Below, piece after piece: positions 29,696 through 44,071 of a DNA stretch of 64,000 nucleotides. A program made the position numbers and the translations under genes. The notes under the pieces were generated by a model that was not told where the DNA came from, made no database searches, and saw only the letters and a program-made list of their open reading frames with translations. Every line of letters starts with the position of its first letter. Position 1 is the first letter of the stretch. This DNA comes from an uncultured Roseburia sp. (lineage in GTDB: Bacteria; Bacillota; Clostridia; Lachnospirales; Lachnospiraceae), in the NCBI GenBank assembly GCA_944380515.1, contig CALWHT010000031.1, forward strand, positions 17,332 through 81,331. Reading direction: 5' to 3'.

Positions 29696-30085
29696 TCAGC
29701 GTTCCGGCTTCGCGTTTGTCCGTTCCTCCCTGTGTGCGTCAATCATGCGCTTGATTTCTTCGGCCTCCTGCTCCGTTAAAGTTTTTCCGCCTCCCAAAAA
29801 GGCCGCGATAAACTTCGGCAGAGAGCCTCCGAAGGTACGTTCCAGAAAATAATCCGATTCCTCTCTCTGGCAGCGCTCCTGCTCTACCAAAACCGTCACC
29901 AGCGACGACTCATTTCGGATAAAGCCTCTCTGGCAGAGCTTTTTGATTACCGTATAGGTCGTTGATTTTTTCCAGCCCAGCTTATCGGCACAAAGCTTCA
30001 CCAGTTCCCCCGAGCTCACCGGGGCATGCTCCCATACAATCGTCATAAATTTATAATCGCTGTCGCACAGCTTTAAATCTTCCAT
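29696..30085 (-). CDS. BlaI/MecI/CopY family repressor
   Basis: KFMTIVWE, WKKSTTYTVIKKLCQRGFI and FLERTFGGSL motifs. Confidence 0.92.
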   Translation of the reverse strand: MEDLKLCDSDYKFMTIVWEHAPVSSGELVKLCADKLGWKKSTTYTVIKKLCQRGFIRNESSLVTVLVEQERCQREESDYFLERTFGGSLPKFIAAFLGGGKTLTEQEAEEIKRMIDAHREERTNAKPER

Positions 30086-30222
30086 ATAATCTCCATTCCG
30101 GAGCGTTTTACGCGACGGGGCGACGCAAATCTTCAATTTGCGTCTGCCATCAGGGCTTATTTGTGACGCTCCGGCACAAATAGCCGTGCGCAAAATAAGC
30201 TATCAAGCTTATTTTGCACACT
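30086..30222 (-). repeat. Structured intergenic repeat, copy A (between the M56 gene and blaI)
   Basis: Shares identical blocks of 35 nt (30087-30121), 41 nt (30124-30164) and 24 nt (30192-30215) with 42184-42356. Confidence 0.95.
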
Positions 30223-30268
30223 GTGACCTCCTGCTGTTTTTGTTCTCCATTTGAAATTCTTCCGGCCC

Positions 30269-31741
30269 TTACATCTGCTCCAATTTCTTTAACAGCTCCG
30301 CGACCTTTTCCGCGGACCCGCCATAGGCTTTGAGGTCGGATATCGAGAGATTCTCTTCGGCATCCCTGACGCTGATGTAATGGGTAATCAGCTCCCCGGA
30401 AACAGAATAGTCCCAGCGCACTTCACCGCAGTTATCGGTCAGTGCCAGAAACAGCACCGCCCGCCTCCACATGTCGTCATCCAGAAGCTTTGTCTGTTCT
30501 TCCCGATCTTTTGCGGACTGCCCGGACAGCTCAAAATGCAGAATATATGTATAGGGCTCAGCTGCCGTCAAAAGCTGTGTCGTAGCCGTACCGTAGACGG
30601 ACAAATCCCCGTAAATCTGCTCGATGGCTCCCATCAATCTCCCGTTTGCAGGAACGTCTCCGACATATGGATTTCTGCTCTCATACAAAAGCAGTGCCGC
30701 AGGGTTTTCCGTTTCGTTTTCCATACCGTCTCCCCCTCCGCTGTTTGCGGCATCTGTAAGACAGAACGCCGCCGCAAGAAGCACAAGCAGCAATGCGGAG
30801 AGCAAACGCCAAAACCCGGGTCTGCGATAATTTAAAATACGCCGGATCCTCCTTGAAACATCACCTTCCCCGAAGGACAGGGGCTGTAACGGATGCCATT
30901 TTTCTCCGGCAAAGGACAGTAAAAGCGCTGCGTATGCTTCTCTTTCCTCCCCGGTCTGGCCTGACAGAGCTTTTTCATCACAGCTCATCTCCATATCCCG
31001 CTCCATCAAAATATATGCCGTCCACACCAGCGGATGGAACCAATAAACGGAAAGCAGGGCGTATGCAAACAGCTTGACCAGATAATCCCTTCTTCGTATA
31101 TGCTGCCGCTCATGCCGCAAAATACACTCCCTCTGCCCTTCCGTAAGACCGCAGGGCAGATAGATGCGCGGCCGGACGATGCCAAACACAAAGGGCGAAC
31201 GAATCTCTCCGCTCTCATAAACAATGCCGTCCCATTTAGTTGCAAAGCGCAGCCTGCGCCTTAAAAACACATAAACGGCCGCTCCGTAAACGGGAAATAA
31301 CACCGCTCCCAAAAGCCAGAGATTGCGAAGCAGGCGGTACACAGCGCTGTCAGTTTGGGCAGCATCCGTATCGGCTCCCTCCCGGGATTGCTCCGCCACG
31401 GTACTCTGTGTCCCGTTAAGGGAAACTCCGCCTGTCTGCGCCCCCGCGGCAGATAGCTCCGCCCCTGATAAAACTCCTTCTTCCGCACTACCCGTATCCA
31501 CATAAAGCAGGCTGTCTGCCACATACCGCTCCGCCGTCGAAACGACTCCGAACAGCCCGTACTCCGATGGAAGCATTACCGGGATGGTCAGCCGCAGAGC
31601 GACAATTCCCCACAGCGCATAAGAAAAAATCCTGGCATTCCGCCTAAGCAGCAACCGGCAGAGCAGCACAACCGGAATAACAAACACCGCTCCCCAGGAC
31701 ATTTTTATCACCGTTTCAAAGATTAGATTGATAAAAGACAT
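30269..31741 (-). CDS. BlaR1/MecR1-like M56 peptidase with a non-penicillin-binding C-terminal domain (DUF4825-like)
   Basis: TM helices, SPFVFG..RPRIYLP, HERQH (HExxH), YWFHPLVW and EMSCDE motifs; C-terminal YESRNPYVGD segment. Confidence 0.88.
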   Translation of the reverse strand: MSFINLIFETVIKMSWGAVFVIPVVLLCRLLLRRNARIFSYALWGIVALRLTIPVMLPSEYGLFGVVSTAERYVADSLLYVDTGSAEEGVLSGAELSAAGAQTGGVSLNGTQSTVAEQSREGADTDAAQTDSAVYRLLRNLWLLGAVLFPVYGAAVYVFLRRRLRFATKWDGIVYESGEIRSPFVFGIVRPRIYLPCGLTEGQRECILRHERQHIRRRDYLVKLFAYALLSVYWFHPLVWTAYILMERDMEMSCDEKALSGQTGEEREAYAALLLSFAGEKWHPLQPLSFGEGDVSRRIRRILNYRRPGFWRLLSALLLVLLAAAFCLTDAANSGGGDGMENETENPAALLLYESRNPYVGDVPANGRLMGAIEQIYGDLSVYGTATTQLLTAAEPYTYILHFELSGQSAKDREEQTKLLDDDMWRRAVLFLALTDNCGEVRWDYSVSGELITHYISVRDAEENLSISDLKAYGGSAEKVAELLKKLEQM

Positions 31742-31781
31742 GTTTTTCCTCCCCTTGCCCGCACATTTTTGTACACAGAAA

Positions 31782-31846
31782 AAGTGGTCGATAATTATAG
31801 ACCTCACTCCTCTATAAGTCTATAACTATCGACCACTTATGTCAAG
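31782..31846 (-). promoter_or_regulatory. Promoter of the M56-blaI operon overlapped by a long inverted repeat
   Basis: TTGACA-N17-TAGACT on the minus strand; AAGTGGTCGATA-TTATAGAC / GTCTATAA-TATCGACCACTT inverted repeat (candidate BlaI operators and/or pepF terminator). Confidence 0.6.
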
Positions 31847-31872
31847 CATGAATTTTTATCCCGTGCTGCTCT

Positions 31873-33672
31873 TTATGAAACGAGCTGCTCCATCTCGTCA
31901 AGCACCCCGCCGAACACATCAAGGGCCTCCTGAATCGGAGCCGGCGTTTCAAGATTCACGCCCGCAATTTTAAGCAGCTCTACCGGCGCCTTGGAACAGC
32001 CGCCCGATAAAAACTTCTTATACCGTTCCACGGCCGGAGCGCCCTCTTTTAAGATTGCATGGGCGATGGCCACCGCCGAAGAAAATCCGGTCGCATACTG
32101 ATATACATAGAAATTGTAGTAAAAATGCGGAATCCTTGCCCACTCATAGGCAATCTCGGGATCCGACACCATATCCGGGCCGTAATATTTGCTGTTCAAA
32201 TCGTAGTAGACCTTGCACAGTGTTTCCGCCGTCAGGCTTTCGCCCTCCTCCGCCATTTTGTTGGTCTGCATCTCATATTCCGCAAACATGGTCTGACGGT
32301 ATACGGTTCCCTTAAAGCTGTCGAGGTAATGATTCAGCAGATAAGCGCGCTCCTTTTTATCCTCCGTATTTTTCAGCAGATATTCCATCAAAAGCACTTC
32401 ATTGCAGGTGGATGCCACCTCAGCCACAAATATCTTATACTGGGAATAGATATAGGGCTGCGCCGCATTGGAATAATAGGAATGCATGGCATGTCCCATC
32501 TCATGGGCCAGCGTAAACATATTGTCCAGCGTATCATTATGGTTTAAAAGCACGTAAGGGTGTGTGCCGAAGGCCCCCGCCGAATAAGCGCCGCTGCGTT
32601 TTCCCTCATTCTCATAAACGTCAATCCAGCGGTTTTCAAAGCCCTCCTTCACCTTCGCCACATAATCCTCACCAAGAGGAGCCAGCGCCTTTAACACGGT
32701 CTCCTTCGCTTCCTCAAAGGAAATCTTTTTTGCCGCGTCCGGAATCATCGGCGTATAGACATCATACATATGAAGCTCGTCAACGCCGAGGCATTTTTTG
32801 CGCAGGCGCACATAACGGTGCATTTTATCCATGTTTCGGTTGACCGTCTCAATCAGATTGTGATAAACCGAGGGCGATACGTTGTTGGCGTCCACGGCCG
32901 CCTCCAGCGTGGACGCATAGTGCCTCGCGCCCGCATAAAACATCTGCTGCTTCACCTGTCCGCTGTACAGGGCTGCCAGCGTATTCGCATATTGCTGATA
33001 TACCTTATAATAATTTTCAAAAGCATCCTTTCTGACACGGCGGTCCGAAGACTCCAGGGTCGGGACAAAATTGCCGTGTGACAGGCGCATGTGCTCTCCC
33101 TGCTCATCCGTAATCTCCGGGAAAACAAAGTCCGCATTATTGATAATCGAATACACCTGCCCGGCGGTTTCCGCCATATCCCCGGTCATTGCCACAAGCT
33201 TTTCCTGCTCCGCGGAAAGGATATGCGGCCTGGTGCGCTCGATTTCCTCCAACTGCTTCCGGTAAAGCTCCAGCGCCGGAAGCTCCTTCAAATATCCCTC
33301 CAGCACCTGGCTGTCTACAGCAAGAATTTCCGGAACAATAAACGCTGTTTTGCTGGAAAGCTCCGTCGCCAGGGCATACATTTTCTGGGACATTGCCTGA
33401 TGCGCCGTATTTTTCTGGTCTTCGTCAAACAGCCTCTCCGCATAATTAAAGGCGAAATCAAGCTTCTGCTCCGCCGCCGCCGCGCGCTCAAGGACAAAAA
33501 GCAGATTTTCGGCAGAAGCGGCAGCCTTTCCCTCCATGGAAGCGATTTCCTCCATCAGCCCCGCAAGCGCCTTCAAATCCTCCTTCCACGCATCCACAGA
33601 CGGATACATGTCCTTTAGGTTCCATGTATATTCTTCTTTTACTTCACTTCTTTTTAATAATTCCTTTGCCAT
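31873..33672 (-). CDS. pepF: Oligoendopeptidase F (M3B)
   Basis: EEYTWNLKDMY, GKRSGAYS, TLAHEMGHAMHS (HExxH), VAEVAS and RIPHFYYNFYVYQYATG motifs. Confidence 0.96.
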   Translation of the reverse strand: MAKELLKRSEVKEEYTWNLKDMYPSVDAWKEDLKALAGLMEEIASMEGKAAASAENLLFVLERAAAAEQKLDFAFNYAERLFDEDQKNTAHQAMSQKMYALATELSSKTAFIVPEILAVDSQVLEGYLKELPALELYRKQLEEIERTRPHILSAEQEKLVAMTGDMAETAGQVYSIINNADFVFPEITDEQGEHMRLSHGNFVPTLESSDRRVRKDAFENYYKVYQQYANTLAALYSGQVKQQMFYAGARHYASTLEAAVDANNVSPSVYHNLIETVNRNMDKMHRYVRLRKKCLGVDELHMYDVYTPMIPDAAKKISFEEAKETVLKALAPLGEDYVAKVKEGFENRWIDVYENEGKRSGAYSAGAFGTHPYVLLNHNDTLDNMFTLAHEMGHAMHSYYSNAAQPYIYSQYKIFVAEVASTCNEVLLMEYLLKNTEDKKERAYLLNHYLDSFKGTVYRQTMFAEYEMQTNKMAEEGESLTAETLCKVYYDLNSKYYGPDMVSDPEIAYEWARIPHFYYNFYVYQYATGFSSAVAIAHAILKEGAPAVERYKKFLSGGCSKAPVELLKIAGVNLETPAPIQEALDVFGGVLDEMEQLVS

Positions 33673-33757
33673 AAAAAACCTCCAGTTCTGTTTTGTACAT
33701 CCATCCTCTAATTTACGCTCCGGCACCCAAATTGTAAAGAAAAAACTGCGAAAAAAA

Positions 33758-35080
33758 TCATCTTTTCCGCTTAAACCAGAAATAATAGGGTACCTCCGCG
33801 GCCAGCATAAAAATCCATCCGATCAGGCTCGCGTAAGCGACGCCGTCAATTCCCATCCGGGGAACCAGCGCATAGACAAAAATAACACGGAATGAAATCT
33901 GTATCAGGGTCGAAATCAATGTGATCGACATATTTCCCATTCCCCGGAAAAAGCCCTGAATTCCGTTCGTAAAAGCGGGAAGCAGGTAAAAAAACGCCAT
34001 CAGGGACAGATAAGAAACGCCCATCGGTACCATCGCCGCATTCTCTCCGGCCGCAAAAAGCTCCATCACTGCCTGCCGTCCGAACAGCACCGCTGTACAG
34101 ATGAGCAGCCAATAGCCCGCCTCCAGCAAAAGTCCGATCCGAAATCCGTTTCTTACACGCTCCCGCTTTCCCGCGCCCCGGTTCTGCGCCACAAACGTCA
34201 TAATGGCGCTCGCGATGCTCTGCTCCGGCGTAAACGCAAAGTCGTCCACGCGGCTGACTGCATTAAACGCCGCGATGGCGCTGACCCCCAGCGTATTGAT
34301 TTTTCCCTGAATCAAAAGCTTGCCGATGGGCTGGCAGCACTGCTGCAATGCGGTAATGCTGCCCTGCTGTATGGTCAGCTTCAAAAGCTCCCCGTCGACT
34401 TCCATATCCTCCCTGCTAAGCCGCAGCGAGGGGACGCGCCTTCTGATATAGCAGACGCATAAAAAGACTGACACCGCCTCCGCAATCACGGTCGCCAGTC
34501 CCGCTCCCGCGGCGCCCCAGTGAAATCCGGCAACAAACAGCAAATCCAGTCCGGCATTCAAAACCGAAGCCGCCGCCAGAAAATAAACCGGCGTTTTCGC
34601 ATCCCCCACGCTGCGAAGCGCCGCCGCCACGGCATTATAAAAAAAGGTAAACGGCATACCGAAAAAAATAATGCGCAGATATACCTTTGCAGTCCCGAGA
34701 ATTTCATCGGGCACCTGAAGCCATATCAGAAGCTGTTCCGAACAAAGCAGCCCCGCTGCCAGCATCAATACCGAAAAAACACAGCCCAAAAGCAGCACGG
34801 TTGACAGCTCCCTTTTTAATTTTCCATATTCGCCGGCACCGAAAAACTGGCTCATCAGCACCGAGGCTCCGATACAGATACCGGAAACGCCCAGTATGAC
34901 AATATTCATAACCGGATTTGCGCAGCCGACCGCTGCCAGCGCGTCCTCCCCCGCAAAGCGTCCGACAATAACGGAATCCACCGCGTTGTAAAGCAGCTGG
35001 AACAGGTTTCCGAGTATCAACGGAATCGAAAACAATATCAAATGTCCGGCAATACCGCCCTCTGTCATCTTTCTTGTCAT
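33758..35080 (-). CDS. MATE family efflux transporter
   Basis: IPLILGNLFQLLYNAVDSVIVGRF and LRSVGDAKTP motifs; two-repeat 12-TM layout. Confidence 0.93.
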   Translation of the reverse strand: MTRKMTEGGIAGHLILFSIPLILGNLFQLLYNAVDSVIVGRFAGEDALAAVGCANPVMNIVILGVSGICIGASVLMSQFFGAGEYGKLKRELSTVLLLGCVFSVLMLAAGLLCSEQLLIWLQVPDEILGTAKVYLRIIFFGMPFTFFYNAVAAALRSVGDAKTPVYFLAAASVLNAGLDLLFVAGFHWGAAGAGLATVIAEAVSVFLCVCYIRRRVPSLRLSREDMEVDGELLKLTIQQGSITALQQCCQPIGKLLIQGKINTLGVSAIAAFNAVSRVDDFAFTPEQSIASAIMTFVAQNRGAGKRERVRNGFRIGLLLEAGYWLLICTAVLFGRQAVMELFAAGENAAMVPMGVSYLSLMAFFYLLPAFTNGIQGFFRGMGNMSITLISTLIQISFRVIFVYALVPRMGIDGVAYASLIGWIFMLAAEVPYYFWFKRKR

Positions 35081-35107
35081 AACATCTCCATCTAAGACAG
35101 GTTGTCA

Positions 35108-35136
35108 TTGTCTTTCCTGAAAAAATCGTCTATAAT
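35108..35136 (+). promoter_or_regulatory. Sigma-A promoter of rqcH
   Basis: TTGTCT-N17-TATAAT. Confidence 0.65.
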
Positions 35137-35190
35137 AAATTTTTGCAGCTTAATATATCGTTTTACAACTTTTATATAAGGAGAAACACC

Positions 35191-36939
35191 ATGGCATTTG
35201 ACGGATTAGTCATATCAAATCTCGTATACGAGCTGAACAATACCATTTTAAATACCAAGATCAGCAAAATCGCCCAGCCGGAAAGCGACGAGCTGTTATT
35301 CACCTTAAAGGGACCGCAGGGTCAGTACCGCCTTGCCATGTCCGCAAGCGCGTCACTGCCCTTTTTATATCTGACGGACAGCAACAAGCAAAGTCCCCTG
35401 ACCGCCCCGAATTTTTGCATGCTGCTGCGCAAGCATATCGCAAACGGGCGCATTACTCGCATTTTCCAGCCGCATATGGAGCGCATTATCCATTTTGAAA
35501 TCGAACATCTCGACGAGCTTGGAGATTTGCGCACCAAAACACTGATTGTCGAGTTGATGGGCAAGCACAGCAATATTATTTTCTGTAATTCCGACGGCGT
35601 AATTATCGACAGCATTAAGCATGTTTCCTCCATGATGAGCTCCGTGCGTGAGGTTCTTCCCGGCCGCCCGTACTGTATTCCTGCCACGCAGGAGGATAAA
35701 CAGAATCCTCTTACGGCAACGGAGGACACATTTTTAAATATTGTCATGAAAAAGCCTGTTGCCCTCACAAAGGCAATCTACGGCTCTTTCACCGGAATCA
35801 GCCCGGTCATCGCAAACGAAATCTGTTTCCGTGCTTCCGTAGACGGCGATATGCCGACGGACGCGCTGGACGAAAACGGGAAAAAGCATCTGTTCCACAA
35901 CTTCCAGTGGATGATGGATGACGTCAGAAACCATAACTACACACCGAATATCATCACCCGCGGGAAGGAACCCGTTGATTTTTCCTGCTTCCGGCTTTCC
36001 GAATACGACTCAGACGCTTATTCCGTGCAGGAATACGATTCCATTTCAAAGGTGCTCGAGGAATATTATGCCTCCCGAAATGTCTATACGCGTATCCGCC
36101 AGAAATCTGTGGATCTGCGCAAAATCGTAAACACGGCGCTTGAGCGCAACCGGAAAAAATACCAGCTTCAGGCAAAGCAGCTTAAGGACACTGAAAAGCG
36201 GGACAAGTATAAAATTTACGGCGAGCTGCTCCACACCTACGGCTACGGGCTCGCGGAGGGCAGCCGCCAGCTTGAGGCGCTCAATTACTACACCAATGAA
36301 ATGGTCACCATTCCGCTTGATCCGACACTGGATGCAAAGGAAAACGCACAAAAGTATTTTGACAAATACGGCAAGCTCAAGCGCACCTATGAGGCTCTCA
36401 CGGATTTAATCCAGGAAACAAAAGCGGAAATCGATCACCTGGAAAGCATCGCGGCGGCCCTCGATATTGCCCAGACCGAGGATGACCTCGTTCAGATTAA
36501 GGAAGAGCTTATGGAATACGGCTATATCCGTCGGAAGCGTACCGACAAAAAAGCCAAAATCAAAAGCAAACCTTTTCATTACATTTCCTCGGACGGCTAT
36601 CATATGTACGTGGGAAAAAATAATTACCAGAACGAGGAACTGACCTTTAAATTCGCGACGGGGAATGACTGGTGGTTTCACGCAAAGGGAATCCCGGGCT
36701 CCCATGTCATCGTGAAGACGAACAACGAGGAAGAACTCCCTGACCGCATGTTTGAGGAAGCGGGAAGGCTTGCCGGCTACTATTCCAGCGGAAGAGACAG
36801 CGATAAGCTGGAAATCGATTATCTCCAGAAAAAGAATGTAAAAAAGCCCGGCGGCAGCGCGCCCGGCTTCGTCATCTACTACACCAATTATTCGCTGACC
36901 ATCCAGCCCGACATCTCCGGGCTGACGTTGGTAGAATAA
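35191..36939 (+). CDS. rqcH: RqcH/FbpA (NFACT) ribosome quality control protein
   Basis: MAFDG, KIAQP, FCMLLRKHI, ELMGKHSNII, ENAQKYF, YVGKNNYQN and WWFHAKGIPGSHV motifs. Confidence 0.95.
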   Translation: MAFDGLVISNLVYELNNTILNTKISKIAQPESDELLFTLKGPQGQYRLAMSASASLPFLYLTDSNKQSPLTAPNFCMLLRKHIANGRITRIFQPHMERIIHFEIEHLDELGDLRTKTLIVELMGKHSNIIFCNSDGVIIDSIKHVSSMMSSVREVLPGRPYCIPATQEDKQNPLTATEDTFLNIVMKKPVALTKAIYGSFTGISPVIANEICFRASVDGDMPTDALDENGKKHLFHNFQWMMDDVRNHNYTPNIITRGKEPVDFSCFRLSEYDSDAYSVQEYDSISKVLEEYYASRNVYTRIRQKSVDLRKIVNTALERNRKKYQLQAKQLKDTEKRDKYKIYGELLHTYGYGLAEGSRQLEALNYYTNEMVTIPLDPTLDAKENAQKYFDKYGKLKRTYEALTDLIQETKAEIDHLESIAAALDIAQTEDDLVQIKEELMEYGYIRRKRTDKKAKIKSKPFHYISSDGYHMYVGKNNYQNEELTFKFATGNDWWFHAKGIPGSHVIVKTNNEEELPDRMFEEAGRLAGYYSSGRDSDKLEIDYLQKKNVKKPGGSAPGFVIYYTNYSLTIQPDISGLTLVE

Positions 36940-37053
36940 AGGGCGCTGTCCGGCGACAGCGCCCTTAAGAGAATGCTCCGCATTCTCCCCGGCGCATTTC
37001 ACCTGGTTCGCGCACTTTCTCCTCTGCTATAAAGAGCGCCGTCCGGCGCTCTT
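36938..37053. terminator. Cluster of three hairpins between convergent genes (bidirectional terminator)
   Basis: GGGCGCTGTC/GACAGCGCCC, GAGAATGC/GCATTCTC and AAAGAGCGCC/GGCGCTCTTT stems. Confidence 0.7.
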
Positions 37054-37598
37054 TATACCCCTCCGTCATGCTCTTTTACATACTGCATAAATTCTTGCGT
37101 TTTCGCCCAGTAACGGCTGCCCCAGTTTTCAAAATTCCATTCCTTATGGTACTCGTTGCACTCATAATCCACATAATACAGCAGCTCTTCCCGCACCACA
37201 AAATTGGTCGGGAAATAATCGATATTGAGTCCCTCTGCGTAGAGCTTGCGGCACATCTTATGGATTTGCTCCGTGTAGGACGGGTTCATCTGCTCCCGCA
37301 GCACCAACTCATAGATGGTCGGGCCTTCGATATACTCCTTTAAAATCCGCTCTTTCTCCTCGTCTGTATCGAGCAGCTTTGGCATGCGGATTCCGGCCGC
37401 AAGCAGGCGCATATAATCCTTTTTCTCCGACGCCAGCTTATCTCCGAACTGGTAATAATCACACGGCTCATGATGAATCTGCTTTAAAACGTACACACCG
37501 GCGGCATCCTCCGCCAGATAGGAATAACCGCCCTTCCCCTTTCCGAGCAGCTTTAAAATCCGATAAGGTTTTCCATTTACCTCCAGTATCTCTTCCAT
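37053..37598 (-). CDS. Small protein-kinase-like fold protein
   Basis: Gly loop LGKGKGGYSY, VLK lysine, KEYIEGPT, NIDYFPTNF catalytic loop and YVDYE (DFG-like). Confidence 0.75.
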   Translation of the reverse strand: MEEILEVNGKPYRILKLLGKGKGGYSYLAEDAAGVYVLKQIHHEPCDYYQFGDKLASEKKDYMRLLAAGIRMPKLLDTDEEKERILKEYIEGPTIYELVLREQMNPSYTEQIHKMCRKLYAEGLNIDYFPTNFVVREELLYYVDYECNEYHKEWNFENWGSRYWAKTQEFMQYVKEHDGGV

Positions 37599-37717
37599 AC
37601 GGTTTTCTCCTTTCCCAGTAGCTTTTCTCCATCATAAAGCCTGTGCCCCGGAAAGTCTTGCACAATTACCGTAAGTACCGATACAATCCTACCCTGCCGA
37701 AAACAAACGCTTCAAAT

Positions 37718-38854
37718 CTATTCGAAAACACTTCCGAGACGACGCATCTCGGTATACGCCAGCAGAAACGGGCCGACGCCCTTTGCGTCATCCTTCACCA
37801 CCGGCTCGGACATATAATAGTCAAAGGTTCCTGAACGTCTGCCTGCGCCGCCGAGCCCTGCCACAAGACAAATACCGTCCAGATGCAGTTCCCCGTTTTC
37901 ATCCTCGGAGAGATATTTTTTGCAGATACCGCGGAAGGCCTTTTCCCCGTAAGCCCTGTAGTTCTCCGGCAAAAAGCCGAGACGCACGCCCTTTAACAGG
38001 GCATATGCCATAATCGAGCTTCCGCTCGTCTCCAGATAATTGCCGTCCATGCCGCCCACATTGACTACCTGATACCACATGCCGCTCTCGTCCTGATACC
38101 GGAGCATGGAATCCATCAAATCCACAAAAATCCGCTTCATATGCTCATAGGGCTCACGTTCGGACGCGTCCATTTTATCGAGCGTGTCAAGCAGCGCCAT
38201 CGAGAACCAGCCAAGCGCCCGGAGCCAGAAGTTCTGGCTTAATCCAGTCACCTTATCGCACCAGAACATTTCACGGGAGGAATCCCACGCATGGTAATAA
38301 AGCCCTGTTTTCGGATCCCTCATATACTTCTCCACATTGAAAAACTGGGAAAATATATCGTCATAATTTTTCTTATCGTTAAACCGCGTCTCATATTCCA
38401 TATAAAACGGCTGGCACATATAAAGTCCGTCAAGCCAAACCTGGTTCGGATAAATATTTTTATGCCAGAAATTCCCCTCTTTCGTGCGCGGCATTTTCTG
38501 AATCTGGCTGTATACCAAATCAATCGCTTTCCGGTATTTTTCCTTTCCGGTCAAATCGTAAAGCTCAAACAGCGTCTTTCCGGCATTTACATTGTCAATA
38601 TTTAATTCCTCCACCGAATACCCCTCAATGGAACCGTCCTCCTTTACCTTGCAGTCGATAAAATTGTCCGCAAACTGAAAGTATTTTTCATCCTTTGTCA
38701 TGGAATACATTTCCAGAATTGCCTTAATCATACAGCCGTCAATGTAATTCCAGGTGGATTTTAAGCCCTGAAGAATTTTTTCGATATTCCAGATTGGCTT
38801 GTCCGGCGTACTTTTCTCCAAAAGCTCATCAATGTACTTTTCAATTTTATCCAT
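37718..38854 (-). CDS. GH105 unsaturated (rhamno)galacturonyl hydrolase (YteR/YesR-like)
   Basis: WNYIDG, NIDNVNAG, FWHK..YPNQVWLDGLYM, YYHAWD, FWLRALGW and ETSGS motifs all intact. Confidence 0.93.
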   Translation of the reverse strand: MDKIEKYIDELLEKSTPDKPIWNIEKILQGLKSTWNYIDGCMIKAILEMYSMTKDEKYFQFADNFIDCKVKEDGSIEGYSVEELNIDNVNAGKTLFELYDLTGKEKYRKAIDLVYSQIQKMPRTKEGNFWHKNIYPNQVWLDGLYMCQPFYMEYETRFNDKKNYDDIFSQFFNVEKYMRDPKTGLYYHAWDSSREMFWCDKVTGLSQNFWLRALGWFSMALLDTLDKMDASEREPYEHMKRIFVDLMDSMLRYQDESGMWYQVVNVGGMDGNYLETSGSSIMAYALLKGVRLGFLPENYRAYGEKAFRGICKKYLSEDENGELHLDGICLVAGLGGAGRRSGTFDYYMSEPVVKDDAKGVGPFLLAYTEMRRLGSVFE

Positions 38855-38922
38855 GTTCCCCTCTCCTTTTCCCCGGTCGGCCGTCTCACCTCCGACACGG
38901 TTGCAGTTTTTATGATAGCTTT

Positions 38923-38951
38923 ATCATATCGAAAAAAAGCGGGTTTGTAAA
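38923..38951 (-). promoter_or_regulatory. Sigma-A promoter of the GH105 gene
   Basis: TTTACA-N17-TATGAT on the minus strand. Confidence 0.65.
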
Positions 38952-38958
38952 CATAATT

Positions 38959-38974
38959 TTGTAAGCGCTTACAA
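38959..38974. promoter_or_regulatory. LacI-family/cre-type operator 1
   Basis: Perfect 16-bp palindrome TTGTAAGCGCTTACAA just upstream of the GH105 -35. Confidence 0.8.
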
Positions 38975-39154
38975 TTTTGGATTTTTTTGAAATTTTGACA
39001 AAAACTGCATGTTTATCGTTTTCAAATCCTCATATACTATCACTGAACAAAACGCAGCGCGATAAAAAAGGGCCGCGGTATTTCGCAGGAAAAACCGTAA
39101 TACCTGAAATCGCCGCGGCGGATGTTCAAAGGAAATCTGATACAGGCAGATAAA

Positions 39155-39183
39155 TCATAACATGAAAACAAAGGAACAAACTA
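39155..39183 (+). promoter_or_regulatory. Candidate sigma-G promoter of the SASP gene
   Basis: TCATA-N17-CAAACTA, close to the SigG consensus GHATA-N17/18-CATWHTA. Confidence 0.5.
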
Positions 39184-39206
39184 ACACACCAAAGGAGGAA
39201 ACTATT

Positions 39207-39413
39207 ATGGCAAGTCGTTCATCGAACAGAGCAGCAGTCCCGGAGGCAAAGAGTGCATTAGACCGTTTCAAATACGAGGTGGCAAGCGAGCTTGGCGTAC
39301 CTTTAAAGGACGGCTACAACGGTGACTTAACTTCCAGACAGAACGGTTCTGTCGGCGGTTATATGGTTAAGAAAATGATCGAGGCACAGGAAAGACAGAT
39401 GGCAGGCAAGTAA
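39207..39413 (+). CDS. Alpha/beta-type small acid-soluble spore protein
   Basis: KYEVASELGV and LTSRQNGSVGGYMVKKMI motifs; strong SD AAAGGAGG. Confidence 0.96.
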   Translation: MASRSSNRAAVPEAKSALDRFKYEVASELGVPLKDGYNGDLTSRQNGSVGGYMVKKMIEAQERQMAGK

Positions 39414-39418
39414 TACAT

Positions 39419-39464
39419 AAAAAAAAAAAACGGACGGGAAGCGATTGCTTCCCGTTTGTTTTTC
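39419..39464. terminator. Bidirectional terminator after the SASP gene
   Basis: A12, then ACGGGAAGC-GATT-GCTTCCCGT, then a T-rich tract. Confidence 0.8.
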
Positions 39465-39465
39465 G

Positions 39466-40077
39466 TTATTTTACTCCGATTTCCCGCAGGTCTTCCGCAC
39501 GGATGTCAGGAAACAAAACGACGGGTAACGGACTGGCGGGGTGATCCCCAAGCATTTTTTCCATCCATACCATATCGTACCATCTTCCGAATTTATAACC
39601 GCATTTATGAAATTTTCCAACCATGCGGTAGCCCATATGCGCATGGAACTCTACGCTGTTTTTCGTCAGGTATTCATCCTCCGTTTCCGGATAGCCGATG
39701 CAGGCGTTCAGATTGAGAATATGCTGCATTTTGGAAATCTCCTCCAGAGCCCGGTACAGCCTCCTGCCAAGTCCCATTTTCCGTTTGTTTTCTTTCAGAT
39801 AGATAGAAACTTCCGCCGCCCAGCCGTAGGCCGCCCTTCCGACAAACGGCCCCGTATAGGCATAGCCGAGTATTTCCCCGTCTTCTTCCGCAACAATGTA
39901 AGGATATTTTTCTTTCGTCTTTCTCATTCTCTCCTGAAATTCCCCGACATCCGGCAGGTCATATTCAAACGTAATTGCCGTTTTGGTTACATACGGCTCA
40001 TAGATATTTTGAATTTGCACTGCATCGTCGGGCAGGGCAATCCGGATGCAAATATTATCTTTTTCCATTATTTTCAC
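39466..40077 (-). CDS. GNAT acetyltransferase, phosphinothricin/methionine-sulfoximine (YncA/Pat) type
   Basis: TAITFEY, YPYIVAE..GEILGYAY, RAAYGW..EVSIY and GYKFGRWYDMVW motifs. Confidence 0.88.
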   Translation of the reverse strand: MKIMEKDNICIRIALPDDAVQIQNIYEPYVTKTAITFEYDLPDVGEFQERMRKTKEKYPYIVAEEDGEILGYAYTGPFVGRAAYGWAAEVSIYLKENKRKMGLGRRLYRALEEISKMQHILNLNACIGYPETEDEYLTKNSVEFHAHMGYRMVGKFHKCGYKFGRWYDMVWMEKMLGDHPASPLPVVLFPDIRAEDLREIGVK

Positions 40078-40125
40078 TCTTCCTTCATCCTGAAGCGTTT
40101 ACAGTAAGAAATACCCACAGCCGTC

Positions 40126-42183
40126 TCAAAGATTCAGCCGGTTATTCCTCTCCTGCAAAAACCGCTCCATATAATGACGCAGCCTTTCGTTGTTTTCTCC
40201 GGACAGATCGGGGTCTTCCTTTAAAAGCTTTTGTACCTCGCCGGACGCCTGCTGTAAGACGGACGCGTCCTGATAAATATCTGCGAGCAGAAATTCCATT
40301 TCGCCGGACTGGCGGATCCCAAAAAAATCTCCCGGCCCGCGGAGCTTTAAATCCTCCGCCGCAATCTGAAATCCGTCGTTGGATTTGTTGAGGATGTCCA
40401 GCCGTTTCGCCGCGTTTTTGCTGTCCGAGCAGTTTATCATGATACAGTAGGACTGTGCGTCTCCTCTGCCGACACGCCCCCGAAGCTGATGAAGCTGCGC
40501 CAGTCCGAAGCGCTCCGCATTTTCAATCAGCATCACCGTCGCATTCGGCACATTGACGCCGACCTCCACCACCGTGGTGGAAACCAGCACCTGTATCTCA
40601 TTTTTCACAAACTGTTCCATAATCCGATTTTTCTGTTCGGCCTTCATCTGTCCGTGCAAAAGCCCGACGGTAATGTCATCGGAAAGCCCCGCACGCAGTT
40701 TTTTCACGTAATCCGTAACGTTCTCGGCCTCTATCTGCTCACTCTCCTCAACAAGCGGACAGATGACATAGGCCTGATGCCCTTTTTTCACCTCATTTTC
40801 GATAAACGCATACGCTTTGGGACGGTATCTTGTATCAACGACGCAGTTTTTCACCGCAAGCCTCCTTGCCGGGACCTCATCAATGACCGAAATATCCAAA
40901 TCCCCATAGATAATAATCGCAAGCGTCCTTGGTATGGGCGTGGCGCTCATCACCAGCACATGAGGCTCGGTTCCCTTCGCCGCAAGCGTCTCCCTCTGGC
41001 GGACACCGAATCGGTGCTGCTCGTCCGTAATCACAAGCGCAAGGTTCTGATAAATGGCTTTCTCCTGGATGAGCGCATGCGTCCCGACAATCATGGCATT
41101 CGGATAAACCTCAAGCGCCTCGTAGGCAAGCCGTTTCTGCCTTGCAGTCATCGAGCCGGTCAAAAGCACCACGGGAAATTTCAGTCCGAACTGCCTGCAC
41201 AGCTCCTGATAGGATTCGTAATGCTGCCTTGCCAGCACCTCGGTAGGCGCCATAATCGCGGACTGGTAGCCGTTGTGCGCCGCGTCCGCCATCGCGAGAA
41301 ACGCCACAATCGTTTTCCCGGAGCCGACGTCTCCCTGTATCAGACGCTGCATGACCGTCTCCGAGCGCATATCGCGCTTTACCTCGGAGAGCGCCCGTTT
41401 CTGCGCGCCGGTCAGTTCATAGGGAAGCTGCTTTATGAGTCGCTCCGTAAAATCATCGTCCGCAAAGATAAATTCGTTTTTTTCCCTGGCGCGCTTTTCC
41501 TTATGATACTGCATACTTAACACAAAGAGGAAAAACTCGTCAAATACCAGACGCTTTCTCGCTCCGATCAGCGTATCCATATCCGCCGGAAAATGTATCT
41601 GTCCGATAGCGTAATTATATTCGCAAAGCCCGTATTTTTCCCGGATATCGGCGGGCAGATAATCGACAAAAAGATTCTCGTCCCCTAAAGCCGCGCGCAC
41701 GGTTTTCGTGACGAGATTGTTGGAAAGTCCGTTTGTCAACGCATAAACCGGCAGAAACACCTGCTCCATCACCCGATACTGCTCCTCGGAATAGACCGCA
41801 GGCTGTTCCATCGTAAGCCTGCCGTTTTTTTTCACGGCCTTTCCGTAAAAAATATAGGTATTCCCAACTTTGAGGTTATTTTTCATATAGGGCATGCGGT
41901 ACCACACCAGCTCCATGGAAACACCGAGTTTTCCGATGACCGCGACCGTTATCTGCATGGAGCGCACCTTTCTTACGACGGGCGTTTTCGTAATCCTTCC
42001 GAGCACTGCAGCTGTCTCGCCGTCCGTGACCTCATCCACATGCTTCGCCTCGGGATAACGTATGTACGTCCGGGGATAATGAAGGAGTATATCACCTACG
42101 GTGTATACTCCTATCTTGTGAAATAATTCTTCTGTTTTCGCGCCAACGCCTTTGATTTCTGAAATGGAAGAATCCCTGTTCAT
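40126..42183 (-). CDS. recG: ATP-dependent DNA helicase RecG
   Basis: RLVFDEFF, RLIQGDVGSGKT, DEQHRFGV, MSATPIPRTL, RFGLAQLHQLRGRVGRG and DLKLRGPG motifs. True start ATG 42183; the longer ORF reads through the repeat. Confidence 0.97.
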   Translation of the reverse strand: MNRDSSISEIKGVGAKTEELFHKIGVYTVGDILLHYPRTYIRYPEAKHVDEVTDGETAAVLGRITKTPVVRKVRSMQITVAVIGKLGVSMELVWYRMPYMKNNLKVGNTYIFYGKAVKKNGRLTMEQPAVYSEEQYRVMEQVFLPVYALTNGLSNNLVTKTVRAALGDENLFVDYLPADIREKYGLCEYNYAIGQIHFPADMDTLIGARKRLVFDEFFLFVLSMQYHKEKRAREKNEFIFADDDFTERLIKQLPYELTGAQKRALSEVKRDMRSETVMQRLIQGDVGSGKTIVAFLAMADAAHNGYQSAIMAPTEVLARQHYESYQELCRQFGLKFPVVLLTGSMTARQKRLAYEALEVYPNAMIVGTHALIQEKAIYQNLALVITDEQHRFGVRQRETLAAKGTEPHVLVMSATPIPRTLAIIIYGDLDISVIDEVPARRLAVKNCVVDTRYRPKAYAFIENEVKKGHQAYVICPLVEESEQIEAENVTDYVKKLRAGLSDDITVGLLHGQMKAEQKNRIMEQFVKNEIQVLVSTTVVEVGVNVPNATVMLIENAERFGLAQLHQLRGRVGRGDAQSYCIMINCSDSKNAAKRLDILNKSNDGFQIAAEDLKLRGPGDFFGIRQSGEMEFLLADIYQDASVLQQASGEVQKLLKEDPDLSGENNERLRHYMERFLQERNNRLNL

Positions 42184-42356
42184 ATTAATCTCCATTCCGG
42201 AGCGTTTTACGCGACGGGGCAGATTTTCTTTCAGAAAATCGCAAATCTTCAATTTGCGTCTGCCATCAGGGCTTATTTGTAACGCTCCAGTACAATATAA
42301 CCAACGCAAACAAGTTTGCGTGTGAAAAATAAGCTATCAAGCTTATTTTTCACACT
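42184..42356 (-). repeat. Structured intergenic repeat, copy B (between fakA and recG)
   Basis: Same three identical blocks as copy A (42186-42220, 42240-42280, 42326-42349) plus two extra small palindromes. Confidence 0.95.
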
Positions 42357-42373: not shown

Positions 42374-44071
42374 CTACTCTACCGAAATGACGTAGTAGTA
42401 AATCGGCTGTCCGCCATAGTGAATCTCAACCTCAACCTCCGGGAAATTCTCCTCCACCTTAGCTCCGATTGCCTCCGCGTCATCCTCTTTGACGTCCTCG
42501 CCGTAATAAATGCTTACAAGCGCGGAATCCCCGTCGATGAGCTGGCCCAGCATATCCATTACCGCGGCCTCCAGATCACGTCCCACGGAAAGGATACCGG
42601 TATCTCCGATACCCATATAGTCATCCTGCCTGATTTCCTTATCATCAATGACCGTATCGCGGACAGCGTAGGTCACCTGACCGGACTTCACGGTCTTAAT
42701 TTCGGAGTTCATACGCTCCTCGTTCTCCTCGGGCGTGCTGTCCGGAATATAATTGACCAGCGCCGTGATTCCCTGCGGAATGGTCTTTGTAGGAATCACA
42801 ATAATCTTTTTGTCCTCCACAAGAGAAGCGGCCTGATTTGCCGCGAGGATGATATTCTTGTTATTCGGTAAAATAAAGATTGTCTTTGCGTTGACTTTCT
42901 CGATGGCGTTTAACATATCCTCCGTACTCGGATTCATCGTCTGTCCACCCTCGATAATATAATCTACGCCAAGTCCTTTAAAAATCTCATTGATACCCTC
43001 GCCGATGCTCACGGAAATAAATCCCATATCCTTCGGTGGCTCTGCCGTCTCCTGCTTTTGTTCCTGCGGAATGCCTGCGGACTGCATCTCCTTTTCTTTT
43101 AAAGCGGAAATCTTCTCGTCGCGCTCCAGCTTCATATTTTCAATGATGATGGTAGTCAGCCCGCCGTAGGTAAGGCCGCGCTGCATTGCAAGTCCCGGAT
43201 CGTTGGTATGTACGTGTACCTTAACGATCTCGTCATCCGCAACCACCACGATGGAATCTCCAATGGTCTCCAGATAGGACTTAAATTCGCTCTCCTGCTT
43301 TGTGGTAATCGGCTTTTCCAGCATAATTAAAAACTGCGTACAGTAAGCAAATTTAATCTCCTGATTTGCCTGTGCCTCGATATTATAAGAAGATACTGCT
43401 CCCTCAGTGGGCTTTTCCGAACTTCCGGTTTCTTCAATGGTATAATCAATTTCCTTTCCGAGCAGGGCGTCAAGGGCTCCTTTGAGCACCTGCATCAGGC
43501 CCTGTCCGCCGGAATCCACAACGCCGGCCTGCTTTAATACCGGAAGCATTTCCGGGGTCTGGTCAAGCACACGGTCGCCCTCCTTGATGACTTCCTCAAG
43601 GAAATAAACAAGGTCCTCTGTCTCGTCGCTTAACTCCGCCGCACGCTCGGACATCCCCTTGGCCACGGTAAGAATCGTTCCCTCCTTCGGCTTCATAACC
43701 GCCTTATAGGCTGTCTCCACCGCCTTCTGGAACGCGTCCGCCAGAACCTGCACATGAATCTCGTCATACTCCGCAATGACCTTTGTAAAGCCGCGGAAAA
43801 GCTGGGAAAGAATTACGCCGGAATTTCCTCTCGCACCGCGCAGGGAACCGGAGGAAATTGCTTTTGCCAGCGAACGCATATCAGGCTTGGCAATCGCGCT
43901 TACCTCCTTTGCCGCCGACATAATGGTCATGGACATATTGGTGCCTGTATCTCCGTCCGGAACCGGAAATACATTCAGCTCGTTAATCCATTCTTTCTTT
44001 GCTTCCAGATTCTTTGCTCCGGCAAGAAACAGCTTCGCCAGAAGCTCAGCATTTATCGTAGTGATTTCCAC
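42374..44071 (-). CDS. DAK2 domain protein, fatty acid kinase subunit FakA/YloV
   Basis: INELNVFPVPDGDTGTNM, GARGNSGVILSQ, KEGTILTV, VVDSGG, KVHVHT, GGQTMNPS and GGQPIYYY motifs. Confidence 0.94.
   Translation of the reverse strand: MEITTINAELLAKLFLAGAKNLEAKKEWINELNVFPVPDGDTGTNMSMTIMSAAKEVSAIAKPDMRSLAKAISSGSLRGARGNSGVILSQLFRGFTKVIAEYDEIHVQVLADAFQKAVETAYKAVMKPKEGTILTVAKGMSERAAELSDETEDLVYFLEEVIKEGDRVLDQTPEMLPVLKQAGVVDSGGQGLMQVLKGALDALLGKEIDYTIEETGSSEKPTEGAVSSYNIEAQANQEIKFAYCTQFLIMLEKPITTKQESEFKSYLETIGDSIVVVADDEIVKVHVHTNDPGLAMQRGLTYGGLTTIIIENMKLERDEKISALKEKEMQSAGIPQEQKQETAEPPKDMGFISVSIGEGINEIFKGLGVDYIIEGGQTMNPSTEDMLNAIEKVNAKTIFILPNNKNIILAANQAASLVEDKKIIVIPTKTIPQGITALVNYIPDSTPEENEERMNSEIKTVKSGQVTYAVRDTVIDDKEIRQDDYMGIGDTGILSVGRDLEAAVMDMLGQLIDGDSALVSIYYGEDVKEDDAEAIGAKVEENFPEVEVEIHYGGQPIYYYVISVE

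Follow-up and report, generated by a model that had tools for sequence, protein, structure and literature searches.

Among known systems, the repeat described here comes closest to Neisseria REP2, pneumococcal BOX and mycobacterial MIRU. As outlined in PMC3184786, REP2 comes with a promoter and an ATG of its own and is associated with a set of co-regulated genes (Parkhill 2000; Morelle 2003). In the same account it shares with our element a length of 120-150 bp, the lack of terminal inverted repeats, stem-loops predicted at the RNA level, a position directly upstream of ORFs, a ribosome-binding site carried within the repeat, tens of copies and mis-annotated small ORFs (PMC3184786). In our element, however, there is no promoter-like site, and about two-thirds of its copies are intercistronic. 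It uses the ATG of the host gene, contains a covarying pseudoknot and optional modules, and has no sequence similarity to REP2, which belongs to another phylum. Similarly, BOX is found in Firmicutes, is modular in that variable hairpin modules are enclosed by a conserved 5' and a conserved 3' part, is co-transcribed with its neighbours, can give rise to spurious ORFs and contains internal modules that fold independently (PMC3049150). BOX, built of boxA, boxB and boxC, differs in having terminal inverted repeats, which the element lacks; it also shows target duplications and occupies varied intergenic positions (PMC3049150), and it neither keeps a fixed distance to a start codon nor supplies a Shine-Dalgarno (SD) sequence. 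MIRU (Supply 1997), as portrayed in PMC3184786, resembles the element in its sense orientation within the intercistronic gaps of operons, in ends that touch or overlap the flanking stop and start codons, and in orthologous sites that are empty in a sister species, but its units, 40-100 bp long and arranged in tandem, have short direct repeats and small ORFs that are conserved. MITEs of the ERIC and Correia type have in common with the element TA at both flanks (53 of 106 copies of the element), transcription within mRNAs and effects at the level of RNA; in contrast, they form long, imperfect palindromes bounded by terminal inverted repeats and insert in both orientations, whereas the element is asymmetric and always lies in sense. 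Pseudoknots close to the SD are also found in the leaders of the preQ1-II and SAM-II riboswitches and in the rpsO and T4 gene 32 operators. There, as in the element, base pairing joins a hairpin loop to a single-stranded segment beside the SD. However, those leaders are single-copy and serve functionally coherent genes, whereas the element is dispersed among unrelated genes and has no match in Rfam.

Two copies in one window

The 64-kb stretch of DNA analysed here (the window) carries two copies of the repeat, A and B (Table 1). A preliminary description had reported three shared blocks in the same order and orientation, and a repeat search of the window confirmed them: a 35-nt block is 100% identical (30087-30121 and 42186-42220), for which the chance expectation in 64 kb is ~1e-12; a second block of 56 nt is 95% identical (30124-30179 and 42240-42295), its initial 41 nt without a difference; and a third, at 85% (30176-30222 and 42310-42356), contains the identical 24-nt AAAATAAGCTATCAAGCTTATTTT. 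The copies differ, as described, by whole hairpin modules, copy B adding 42222-42240 (GATTTTCT..AGAAAATC) and 42304-42321 (ACGCAAAC..GTTTGCGT), and in the terminal hairpin both the compensatory change from C-G to A-U and the U.G wobble confined to the minus strand were found. The flanking genes had likewise been correctly named, their Pfam labels being Peptidase_M56 and Penicillinase_R (BlaI-like) around copy A and FakA/Dak2 and RecG around copy B. As had been suggested, a covariance model was built and Rfam compared. The model, constructed from other copies of the family, recognised copies A and B and nothing besides them on the minus strand of the window, and no known family matched: Rfam 15 at the gathering score gave no match in the whole window, and at both copies there was merely hairpin noise (E of at least 0.3). 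The idea that the direct repeats promote deletion of the 12 kb between them found no support: an independent metagenome contig keeps both copies 12,096 bp apart, as in the window.

Table 1. Features of the two copies and their loci, in window coordinates.
Feature	Position	Strand	Remarks
BlaI-like repressor gene	29696..30085	-	Pfam PF03965; ATG 30083-30085, 5 nt past element GGAG
Copy A, canonical 135-nt unit H1-H2-H3-tail	30087..30221	-	cmsearch, model R1: 154.5 bits, E 6e-35
Copy A 3' tail CCGUCGCGUAAAACGCUCCGGAAUGGAGAUUA	30087..30118	-	pseudoknot strand ACGCUCCGG 30098-30106; SD GGAG 30091-30094
Copy A H3, variable hairpin GGCAGACGCAAAUUGAAGAUUUGCGUCGCC	30119..30148	-	30-40 sequences per pair changed on both sides
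Copy A H2 hairpin	30154..30185	-	upper stem UUUGUG/CACAAA invariant; 9-nt loop CCGGAGCGU at 30166-30174
Copy A H1, 16-bp hairpin GUGUGCAAAAUAAGCU-UGAU-AGCUUAUUUUGCGCAC	30186..30221	-	opens with GUG, 7 nt past flanking AGGAGG
AGGAGG upstream of H1	30227..30232	-	GGAGG-AACCT-ATG in element-free orthologue L188; GGAGG-TCACA-element in the window
Peptidase_M56 (BlaR1-like) gene, upstream of copy A	30269..31807	-	
recG	40126..42183	-	ATG 42181-42183, 6 nt past element GGAG
Copy B, 170-nt unit with two additional modules	42186..42355	-	cmsearch 87.2 bits, E 1e-18
Copy B 3' tail	42186..42217	-	pseudoknot strand 42197-42205; SD GGAG 42190-42193
Copy B optional module H3b (GAUUUUCUGAAAGAAAAUC)	42222..42240	-	module alike in L031
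Copy B H3 core hairpin	42240..42258	-	
Copy B H2	42270..42302	-	loop CUGGAGCGU at 42282-42290; U.G wobble with tail
Copy B optional module H1b (ACGCAAACUUGUUUGCGU)	42304..42321	-	same module in copies L025, L027 and L179
Copy B H1	42320..42355	-	
fakA (Dak2/FakA-like) gene, upstream of copy B	42374..44071	-	

Family size and RNA structure

This repeat family of gut Lachnospiraceae is previously undescribed; we found no match to it in the literature and no related annotated entry in searches of plasmid and phage records. The two window copies are far from the only ones, and covariation across the family is strong. At least 165 copies were collected from 18 species-level Lachnospiraceae MAGs and gut metagenomes, with 51 exact matches across the 18 MAGs (at most seven per fragmented MAG, frequently at contig ends) and more than 120 metagenome loci that carry the element. 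The roughly 165 cmsearch matches are strand-specific, reverse-strand scores reaching no more than 31 bits. The hosts are Roseburia- and Acetatifactor-like Lachnospiraceae of the chicken, rabbit, mouse, deer and human gut. Identity between copies is 88.9% inside one MAG versus 82.6% between MAGs (permutation p = 0.0005). Tandem neighbours at one gene start belong to different subfamilies, 50-85% identical, and are joined exactly, GUGUG following directly on GGAGAUUA. The build is modular, with optional H1b and H3b, an H3 of variable size and certain copies without H1 or H3; partial copies (without H1, H3, or H1 and H2) stand before intact genes (L009, L025, L032, L035, L048). The element was also found in metatranscriptome RNA contigs, which shows presence only. 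Assemblies break or become chimeric at the repeat (L173-L179). The uORF of the element is not conserved, and it is structure rather than coding capacity that has been maintained; the spurious peptides that the preliminary description mentioned do exist, as at least 24 clusters of 41-81 aa 'proteins' in public annotations.

The modelled transcript folds into three hairpins, H1, H2 and H3, and a pseudoknot between the H2 loop and the 3' tail. In the family alignment the proportion of paired cells is 97.1%, compared to 85.1% in shuffles, and 27 of 36 pairs have changed on both sides, among them all 12 modelled pairs of H1. The covariation score is 0.238 versus 0.075 in shuffles, none of 500 of which reached 0.238, and 0.02-0.04 with slid partners. 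Seven distinct combinations of loop and tail occur, all complementary and several solely through G.U. The upper six base pairs of H2 are almost invariant while its lower stem and loop covary; covariation is absent from the 4-bp anti-SD:SD hairpin that the CUCC of the tail could form with GGAG. Within the helices G.U outnumbers A.C by 84 to 42, a count that is biased towards G.U because the alignment had been fitted to the sense-strand model; this asymmetry of wobbles points to the transcribed strand, as was proposed from the two window copies. The earlier view of a multi-copy, non-autonomous family selected for structure and devoid of a transposase or terminal inverted repeats is also supported.

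Start codons, Shine-Dalgarno supply and empty sites

The preliminary description placed the copies between co-transcribed genes. This is not the defining anatomy: each copy borders on the downstream start codon and itself contains the SD of that gene; the description missed this abutment, the supply of the SD and the H2-loop:tail pseudoknot, which are the defining features. For 151 of 166 copies, an ORF of at least 50 aa begins 3-11 nt beyond the 3' end CGCUCCGGAAUGGAGAUUA. GGAG and the start codon are separated by exactly 6 nt in 128 of the 166, and from this GGAG-N6-start arrangement we conclude that the element supplies the SD sequence. At ordinary gene starts in the same DNA the spacing is broad, 5-10 nt, and TA occurs at -4/-3 in 8.5%. 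Conservation is bordered by UA/GUGUG on the 5' side and by GGAGAUUA/nnAUG on the 3' side, and the element lies in sense relative to the downstream gene. Upstream ORFs stop at the element's own TAG, TGA or TAA in 24 of 64 intercistronic copies. The downstream genes are unrelated (123 proteins and 191 Pfam families, with at most three proteins per family). No sigma-70-like promoter was found in copy A or copy B.

In sister species, the junctions orthologous to those at recG and blaI, examined as empty sites as had been proposed, are free of the element. The fakA-recG spacers of recG orthologues at 83% and 79% identity measure 13 nt and 7 nt, and a blaI orthologue at 82% reads GGAGGAACCT-ATG. Comparison with such orthologues shows that the ATG in use is the native start of the host gene: the MNRDSS/MDRNSP N-terminus marks the same start in the recG orthologues L181 and L183, and the N-terminus MEDLKLCDSDYKF is common to the BlaI of the window and L188. 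Judging from the junction sequences, the AGGAGG upstream of copy A is probably the native blaI SD, displaced. In the species used for the empty sites intergenic DNA is no longer alignable. No within-species presence/absence polymorphism was detected among 21 contigs with identical BlaI, each of which either has the element upstream or is broken within it, so insertion is deduced solely from species that are 17-21% apart in protein.

Origin and function of the repeat

We consider it fairly probable that the element is a non-autonomous repeat derived from insertion, that it is specific for translation-initiation regions and tolerated because it takes the place of the ribosome-binding site, and that its pseudoknot serves as an insulating leader. 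Insertion would be in sense, some 2 nt before the start codon, and would displace the native SD to the 5' side of the element. The 3' end of the element, GGAAUGGAGAUUA, offers a new SD at the optimal distance of 6 nt, so that the gene remains translatable, and its 5' edge, UA followed by GUGUGAAAAAUAA, has stop codons in two frames, which end upstream ORFs that run in. The purine-rich, SD-like H2 loop pairs with the pyrimidine-rich, anti-SD-like tail directly upstream of the real SD, and this pseudoknot may hold the tail and the upstream hairpins off the SD. Such insulation would explain both the tolerance of the element at hundreds of unrelated genes and the selection on RNA structure. However, the invariance of the upper H2 stem hints at a bound factor, which an insulator would not need, and the lack of covariation in the anti-SD:SD hairpin also counts against this explanation, as does the fact that no transposase, recombinase or RT was found beside any copy, nor a longer 'parent' with the same ends. 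The family may be mobile, or have been so recently, and would target sequence that resembles a translation-initiation region. No DNA transposition mechanism known to us accounts for targeting 2 nt before a start codon, nor do we know of a bacterial element that targets this position; yet the heterologous tandem insertions argue that the specificity is mechanistic and not just selective. A bolder possibility, which we put forward tentatively, is a mobile 'translation-initiation cassette'. The junction of tandem units, GGAGAUUA-GUGUG-AAAAAU, resembles an SD, spacer and start codon, and a circular or tandem junction of this kind (GGAGAUUA-GU-GUG-AAA-AAU) could integrate by recombination at the equivalent region of any gene, the pseudoknotted RNA acting as shared translational control or insulation. 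To our knowledge, the translation-initiation region has not been described as a target class for any bacterial mobile element.

The pseudoknot immediately 5' of the SD, with its seven covarying variants, and the nearly constant upper stem of H2 above a covarying lower stem and loop could also be read as a mobile cis-regulatory module, that is, a site that binds or senses a single trans-acting factor (a protein on the UUUGUG/CACAAA stem, or a general signal). The factor would switch the tail, whose CUCC is able to pair with GGAG, between the H2 loop, leaving the SD free, and the SD itself, which would be masked; many unrelated genes would thereby share a single translational control. The same has been proposed for Neisseria REP2, a precedent for a repeat that carries a ribosome-binding site and co-regulates genes. 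We think this unlikely, given that the downstream genes have no common function, that the CUCC:GGAG hairpin comprises just 4 bp and does not covary, that partial copies persist before intact genes, and that Rfam holds no match.

Alternatively, the hairpins could be DNA recognition structures of an IS200/IS605-type PATE or REP-like unit, moved as ssDNA, as the preliminary description suggested, by an HUH (TnpA/RAYT) enzyme encoded elsewhere and inserted 3' of a short TA-ending target that the right end, ATTA, mimics. The orientation is indeed strand-specific, terminal inverted repeats are absent, about 75% of the 5' flanks end in NNTA, and head-to-tail insertion right after the ATTA of a resident copy (ATTA/GTGTG at tandem junctions) is what this mechanism predicts. 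Nevertheless, we regard such an origin as quite improbable. The paired subterminal hairpins of PATEs are missing: the sole terminal hairpin, H1, begins at the left boundary itself, with no space for a guide sequence, and the right end is single-stranded or pseudoknot tail without a similar hairpin. Furthermore, the 5' TA is missing at both window copies (CA and GA), a tetranucleotide target is insufficient for the exact start-codon position, and the G.U wobbles and the loop:tail pseudoknot suit RNA better than a DNA hairpin. A non-systematic look at the retrieved flanks revealed no Y1/HUH gene. REP units are 20-40 nt GC-rich palindromes with a conserved 5' tetranucleotide and an associated RAYT gene; the unit described here is a composite, asymmetric 135 nt with an AT-rich H1. 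A target duplication, which the preliminary description had excluded, would be compatible with the TA that flanks both ends in about half of the copies. A classical MITE of the ERIC, Correia or RUP kind, with TA as its target-site duplication and a transposase of the IS630/Tc1-mariner type, of which selection would keep only landings between the SD and the start codon, would fit the TA at both flanks (8.5% background), the extensive pairing and the other MITE-like traits of the element, which at ~135 bp is small, non-coding, multi-copy and absent from orthologous sites. We hold this to be very unlikely, as the left end GTGTGAAAAAT and the reverse-complemented right end ATCTCCATTCC (or TAATCTCCATT) share no inverted repeat, the orientation is sense throughout, neither window copy has a 5' TA, and the spacing of 2 nt from the ATG is much tighter than selection for a suitable SD position would yield. 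Chance similarity or an assembly artefact, for which breaks and chimeras at the repeat might speak, has a negligible probability and was rejected on the strength of at least 165 copies in independent assemblies and hosts and of the covariation statistics.

For annotation and assembly, the element matters as contigs break inside it, start codons are mis-called with N-terminal extensions, and spurious protein clusters arise from it. The covariance model is a ready handle for this new candidate RNA family. If a translation-initiation-specific repeat is indeed what we have found, abundant gut commensal Lachnospiraceae carry an element through which dozens of housekeeping genes in each genome have their ribosome-binding sites rewritten, and the affected genes would all be translated from an identical SD within an identical RNA fold. 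Should the element prove to be a cassette, unrelated genes would be wired into one post-transcriptional circuit.

Two window copies of a modular repeat family

A repeat search of the window recovered as real repeats the two similar stretches to which the preliminary description had drawn attention (see table), with identical blocks of 35 nt and 41 nt and a palindromic block of 24 nt common to both, in the same order and orientation. We read the element on the minus strand, which carries every flanking gene. The compensatory change from C-G to A-U reported for the terminal hairpin is present between the copies, as is the U.G wobble, the plus-strand equivalent of which is a C.A mismatch. Folding is strong on both strands of the copies (z = -5.5 to -8), so the functional strand is not identifiable from folding energy alone.

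Coordinates of the repeat copies and neighbouring features (window positions unless a fetched locus, L, is named)
Feature	Position	Strand	Remark
Copy A	30087-30221	minus	before blaI
H1 of copy A	30186-30221	minus	carries UGUG/CACA motif
H2 of copy A	30154-30185	minus	carries UGUG/CACA motif
Copy B	42186-42355	minus	before recG; two additional small hairpins relative to copy A
Additional hairpins of copy B	42304-42321 and 42222-42240	minus	
70-nt direct repeat	38345-38414 and 51539-51608		71% identity
Glyco_hydro_88 gene	37718-38854		contains first copy of the 70-nt repeat
M56 then blaI	29696-31807		
21-nt inverted repeat	31782-31838		95% complementary, 15 nt apart, at the M56 gene 5' end
fakA-recG spacer, 83% orthologue	L181:2488-2500		13 nt, element absent
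blaI element copy, metagenome scaffold	L179:160-625		copy-B-type H1b

A covariance model for which 68 canonical copies were used matched only copies A and B in the window and detected about 165 copies in the fetched DNA, scoring up to 160 bits on one strand and at most 31 bits on the opposite strand, where the palindromic H1 alone matched. The family is therefore multi-copy, as had been proposed from the two window copies. An exact 21-mer from block 1 gave 51 matches in 18 species-level Lachnospiraceae MAGs (at most 7 per MAG), labelled Acetatifactor, 'Roseburia', Lachnospira, or unclassified Lachnospiraceae or Eubacteriales, and a 21-mer from the H2 loop region occurred in more than 120 metagenome contigs among the matches listed. 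Many block 1 matches sit at contig ends, as expected of an assembly-breaking repeat. The window organism is a chicken-gut bacterium. Proteins with 74-83% identity to its RecG include some that their sources name Roseburia sp. The element is also present in RNA libraries, at high word depth and with many copies contributing, the evidence here being Logan contigs of metatranscriptomes alone, which do not give processing sites.

From 5' to 3' on the transcribed strand, a variable purine run of the 5' flank resembling a Shine-Dalgarno (SD) sequence, usually followed by UA, leads into hairpin H1 (GUGUGAAAAAU...AUUUUUCACAC), in which the lower stem is conserved and the upper stem covaries. An optional hairpin, H1b, may separate H1 from H2, where the lower stem covaries, the upper stem (UUUGUG/CACAAA) is essentially invariant and the loop (CCGGAGCGU) is 9 nt long. 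The linker CUGAUGGCAGA then leads to H3, variable in length and sequence, to an optional H3b, and to the tail, CGCCCCGUCGC(G)UAA(A)ACGCUCCGGAAUGGAGAUUA, after which come two variable bases and then a gene's ATG. Partial copies without H1 (L009, L035, L048), without H3 (L025) or without both H1 and H2 (L032) retain the tail ahead of a gene; loss of H1 in L118, compared with L064 and L119, is a deletion between two TTTCAC copies. Given these partial copies and the optional hairpins, the earlier designation of the repeat as modular is right. In all copies a UGUG/CACA motif recurs in two stems, the lower one of H1 (GUGUG/CACAC) and the upper one of H2 (UUGUG/CACAA); strands of H1 and H2 could pair with each other in an alternative fold, or the motif could be a repeated protein site.

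Several features of assemblies and annotations bear on the same DNA. Many Logan and MAG contigs start or stop inside the element, with the break typically 30 nt ahead of the ATG of the downstream gene (examples are L173-L177, L002, L011, L034 and L039); assemblies of these genomes break systematically at the element. The metagenome scaffold L179, where the blaI copy has a different upstream context, may have arisen by recombination between copies or may be an assembly chimera spanning the repeat. In NCBI/ENA-derived collections, 24 clusters of predicted proteins of 41-81 aa (P0241-P0264) are translations of the element, with up to 92% identity to its read-through frame; they are spurious ORF calls, of the kind that the preliminary description mentioned for gut Lachnospiraceae annotations. 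The 70-nt direct repeat elsewhere in the window is probably a paralogous gene pair.

Selection on the RNA fold

The element is under selection for its RNA fold. RNAalifold predicted H1, H2 and H3 from 68 copies, with two-sided changes at 20 of 33 pairs. When 106 further copies were aligned to the model, 97.1% of cells paired, compared with 85.1% in shuffles, and 27 of 36 pairs had two-sided changes. The covariation score was 0.238 against 0.075 in shuffles, a value reached by none of 500 shuffles, and was 0.02-0.04 with partners slid by 1-3 columns.

In addition, the H2 loop has its complement in the tail stretch just upstream of the SD. For most copies the search patterns themselves prescribed the loop and the tail; the informative cases are therefore the divergent subfamilies that the model detected, all of which keep this complementarity with different sequences. 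The loop and tail combinations are CCGGAGCGU with ACGCUCCGG, UCUGAGC with GCUCAGA, UCAGAGC with GCUCUGA, CGCAGGCGC with GCGUCUGCG, CCGCAGGCGU with ACGCCUGCGG, CCGAAGCG with CGCUUCGG, and CCGGGGCG with CGUCUCGG; several pair through G.U only. This G.U pairing, together with the excess of G.U pairs (84) over A.C mismatches (42) in the helices, indicates that the selected structure is the transcript's, with the reservation that the sense-strand model had been used to fit the alignment. Two other helices were rejected: a CUCC:GGAG (anti-SD:SD) hairpin drawn by RNAalifold and an extra UGAU:GUCG helix had no covariation and did not differ from shuffles.

Probable insertion at the start codon

The element occupies the native junction of spacer and start codon, replaces the SD and closes upstream reading frames. 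An ORF of at least 50 aa starts 3-11 nt after GGAG in 151 of the 166 copies with a recognisable tail, a fraction that carries an anchor bias from the extraction, and the spacing is exactly 6 nt in 128 of the 166. Among 764 ordinary gene starts of this DNA, the GGAG-ATG spacing is broad (5-10 nt), TA stands at -4/-3 in 8.5% and GGAAUGGAG occurs in 1%. On the 5' side conservation sets in at UA|GUGUG, and on the 3' side it stops at GGAGAUUA|nnAUG. From this adjacency, spacing and these limits it follows that the downstream gene's SD is supplied by the element; a putative displaced native SD lies 3-5 nt upstream of H1. About two-thirds of copies (64/99) lie behind a same-strand ORF and are thus intercistronic, and in 24 of these 64 the upstream ORF stops in the element's own 5' edge, at UAG (-2), UGA (+3) or UAA (+10). 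The preliminary description was partly right, in that the modular repeat family is real, but it had missed this start-codon-adjacent anatomy. The downstream proteins are real and their N-termini native; the N-terminal residues of RecG and BlaI are the same in orthologues without the element.

We believe that the element is an insertion-derived repeat rather than a conserved leader. An SD and then a start codon occur at the H1 5' edge in 94 of 107 copies, but a conserved leader peptide was rejected as a coding feature, since the position of the stop, the frame and the peptide differ among copies and 25 copies run on into the gene, counting any frame. The genes downstream have unrelated functions: 123 proteins match 191 Pfam families, none of which occurs in more than three proteins. 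Moreover, empty sites of the kind sought since the preliminary description were found at orthologous recG and blaI junctions. Between fakA and recG lie 190 nt in the window and also in L180, a strain of 99% identity. The spacer measures 13 nt (GAATGGAGTAAAA) in the 83% orthologue and 7 nt (GAGCAGT) in the 79% one, and the covariance model had no match in these two short-spacer loci. Likewise, the M56-blaI junction reads ...GGAGGAACCT-ATG in an 82% orthologue and ...GGAGGTCACA-element-T-ATG in the window. Copies are more alike within a MAG (88.9% identity) than between MAGs (82.6%; permutation p = 0.0005). In five tandem pairs the units belong to different subfamilies (50-85% identity) and meet exactly at ...GGAGAUUA|GUGUG..., with GU-AUG directly after the last unit. 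This is what would be expected if insertions had recurred independently at one SD/start junction, and not if a unit had been duplicated locally. Within the species, all 21 contigs encoding identical BlaI were occupied or broken in the repeat; L179, with its different upstream context, may be a chimera.

Other readings were also rejected. TA as a remnant of the upstream stop codon fits 7/7 cases, but the baseline is 79% and the fit is not significant. The extensions of N-terminally extended BlaI homologues (139-177 aa) are not derived from the element, and no internal promoter was found in either window copy.

Within the empty L181 spacer, GAATGGAG matches the end of the element tail, and about 12-20 of 106 5' flanks carry GGAATGGAG, compared with 1% of ordinary gene starts; such matches may have been left behind by a lost copy, or may represent a solo tail or a preferred target. 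M56 precedes blaI in the window, L184 and L188, and blaI precedes M56 in the 76% orthologue L190; this regulatory pair is rearranged within the clade. The inverted repeat AAGTGGTCGATAATTATAGAC / GTCTATAACTATCGACCACTT in the window is probably the BlaI operator of the M56-blaI operon, and a very similar palindrome (GGTCGATAGTTATAGAC...GTCTATGATTATCGACC) lies ahead of blaI in L190.

Proposed working, mobility and relatives

We propose that the pseudoknot pairing of the SD-like H2 loop with the anti-SD-like tail would leave the SD 5 nt downstream unmasked by the pyrimidine tail or by the stable hairpins upstream. With its SD so insulated, an insertion would be nearly neutral at any gene. That the element is instead a mobile regulatory module seems to us unlikely, and we retain this rival because the near-invariant H2 upper stem hints at the site of a bound factor, whether mobilising enzyme or regulator. 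The unit-unit junction GGAGAUUA-GU-GUG-AAA-AAU, itself a near-consensus SD, spacer and start codon, suggests that integration may be recombination of that junction with the equivalent region of a target gene. TA stands at both flanks in half of copies, with which a TA duplication or an IS200/IS605-like insertion 3' of NNTA would each be compatible. No mobilising enzyme was seen next to copies in the fetched loci, and a search for an autonomous parent, with the H2 anchor and the tail up to 4 kb apart, found none; the apparent cases were dismissed, as they came from the near-palindromic H2 matching on the reverse strand or from the end of a contig.

Rfam held nothing relevant for the window at gathering score or for both copies by E-value, so that the comparison first proposed in the preliminary description returned no known family. 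Viral contigs scanned with block 2 gave 0 matches and the plasmid collection none. The phage collection gave three matches, MT837007.1, MT836788.1 and MT838414.1 (L191), each a virome contig labelled 'UNVERIFIED Bacteriophage sp.'. One of them was examined; its genes (MBOAT, DUF6077, DUF6020) are bacterial, so that it resembles bacterial DNA captured in a virome and gives no evidence of phage carriage. The conserved strings were absent from papers in a full-text search, and a keyword search returned no description of the element.

Among described repeats, Neisseria REP2 (PMC3184786) comes nearest in kind; it is likewise 120-150 bp, without terminal inverted repeats, with internal stem-loops and a ribosome-binding site, and immediately upstream of genes; unlike the element, which has no promoter-like site, REP2 has its own promoter and ATG. 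BOX (PMC3049150) shares its modular build and MIRU (PMC3184786) its intercistronic, codon-touching placement, but the ends and position rules of both differ. The element lacks the terminal inverted repeats of a MITE and the two hairpins of an IS200/IS605 PATE. We file it with the known small non-autonomous interspersed repeats, among which it is unusual in lying exactly next to the start codon, where it replaces the SD, and in having a covarying pseudoknot. In conclusion, the element is real and widespread, with no description found in the literature and databases searched (Rfam, plasmid collection).
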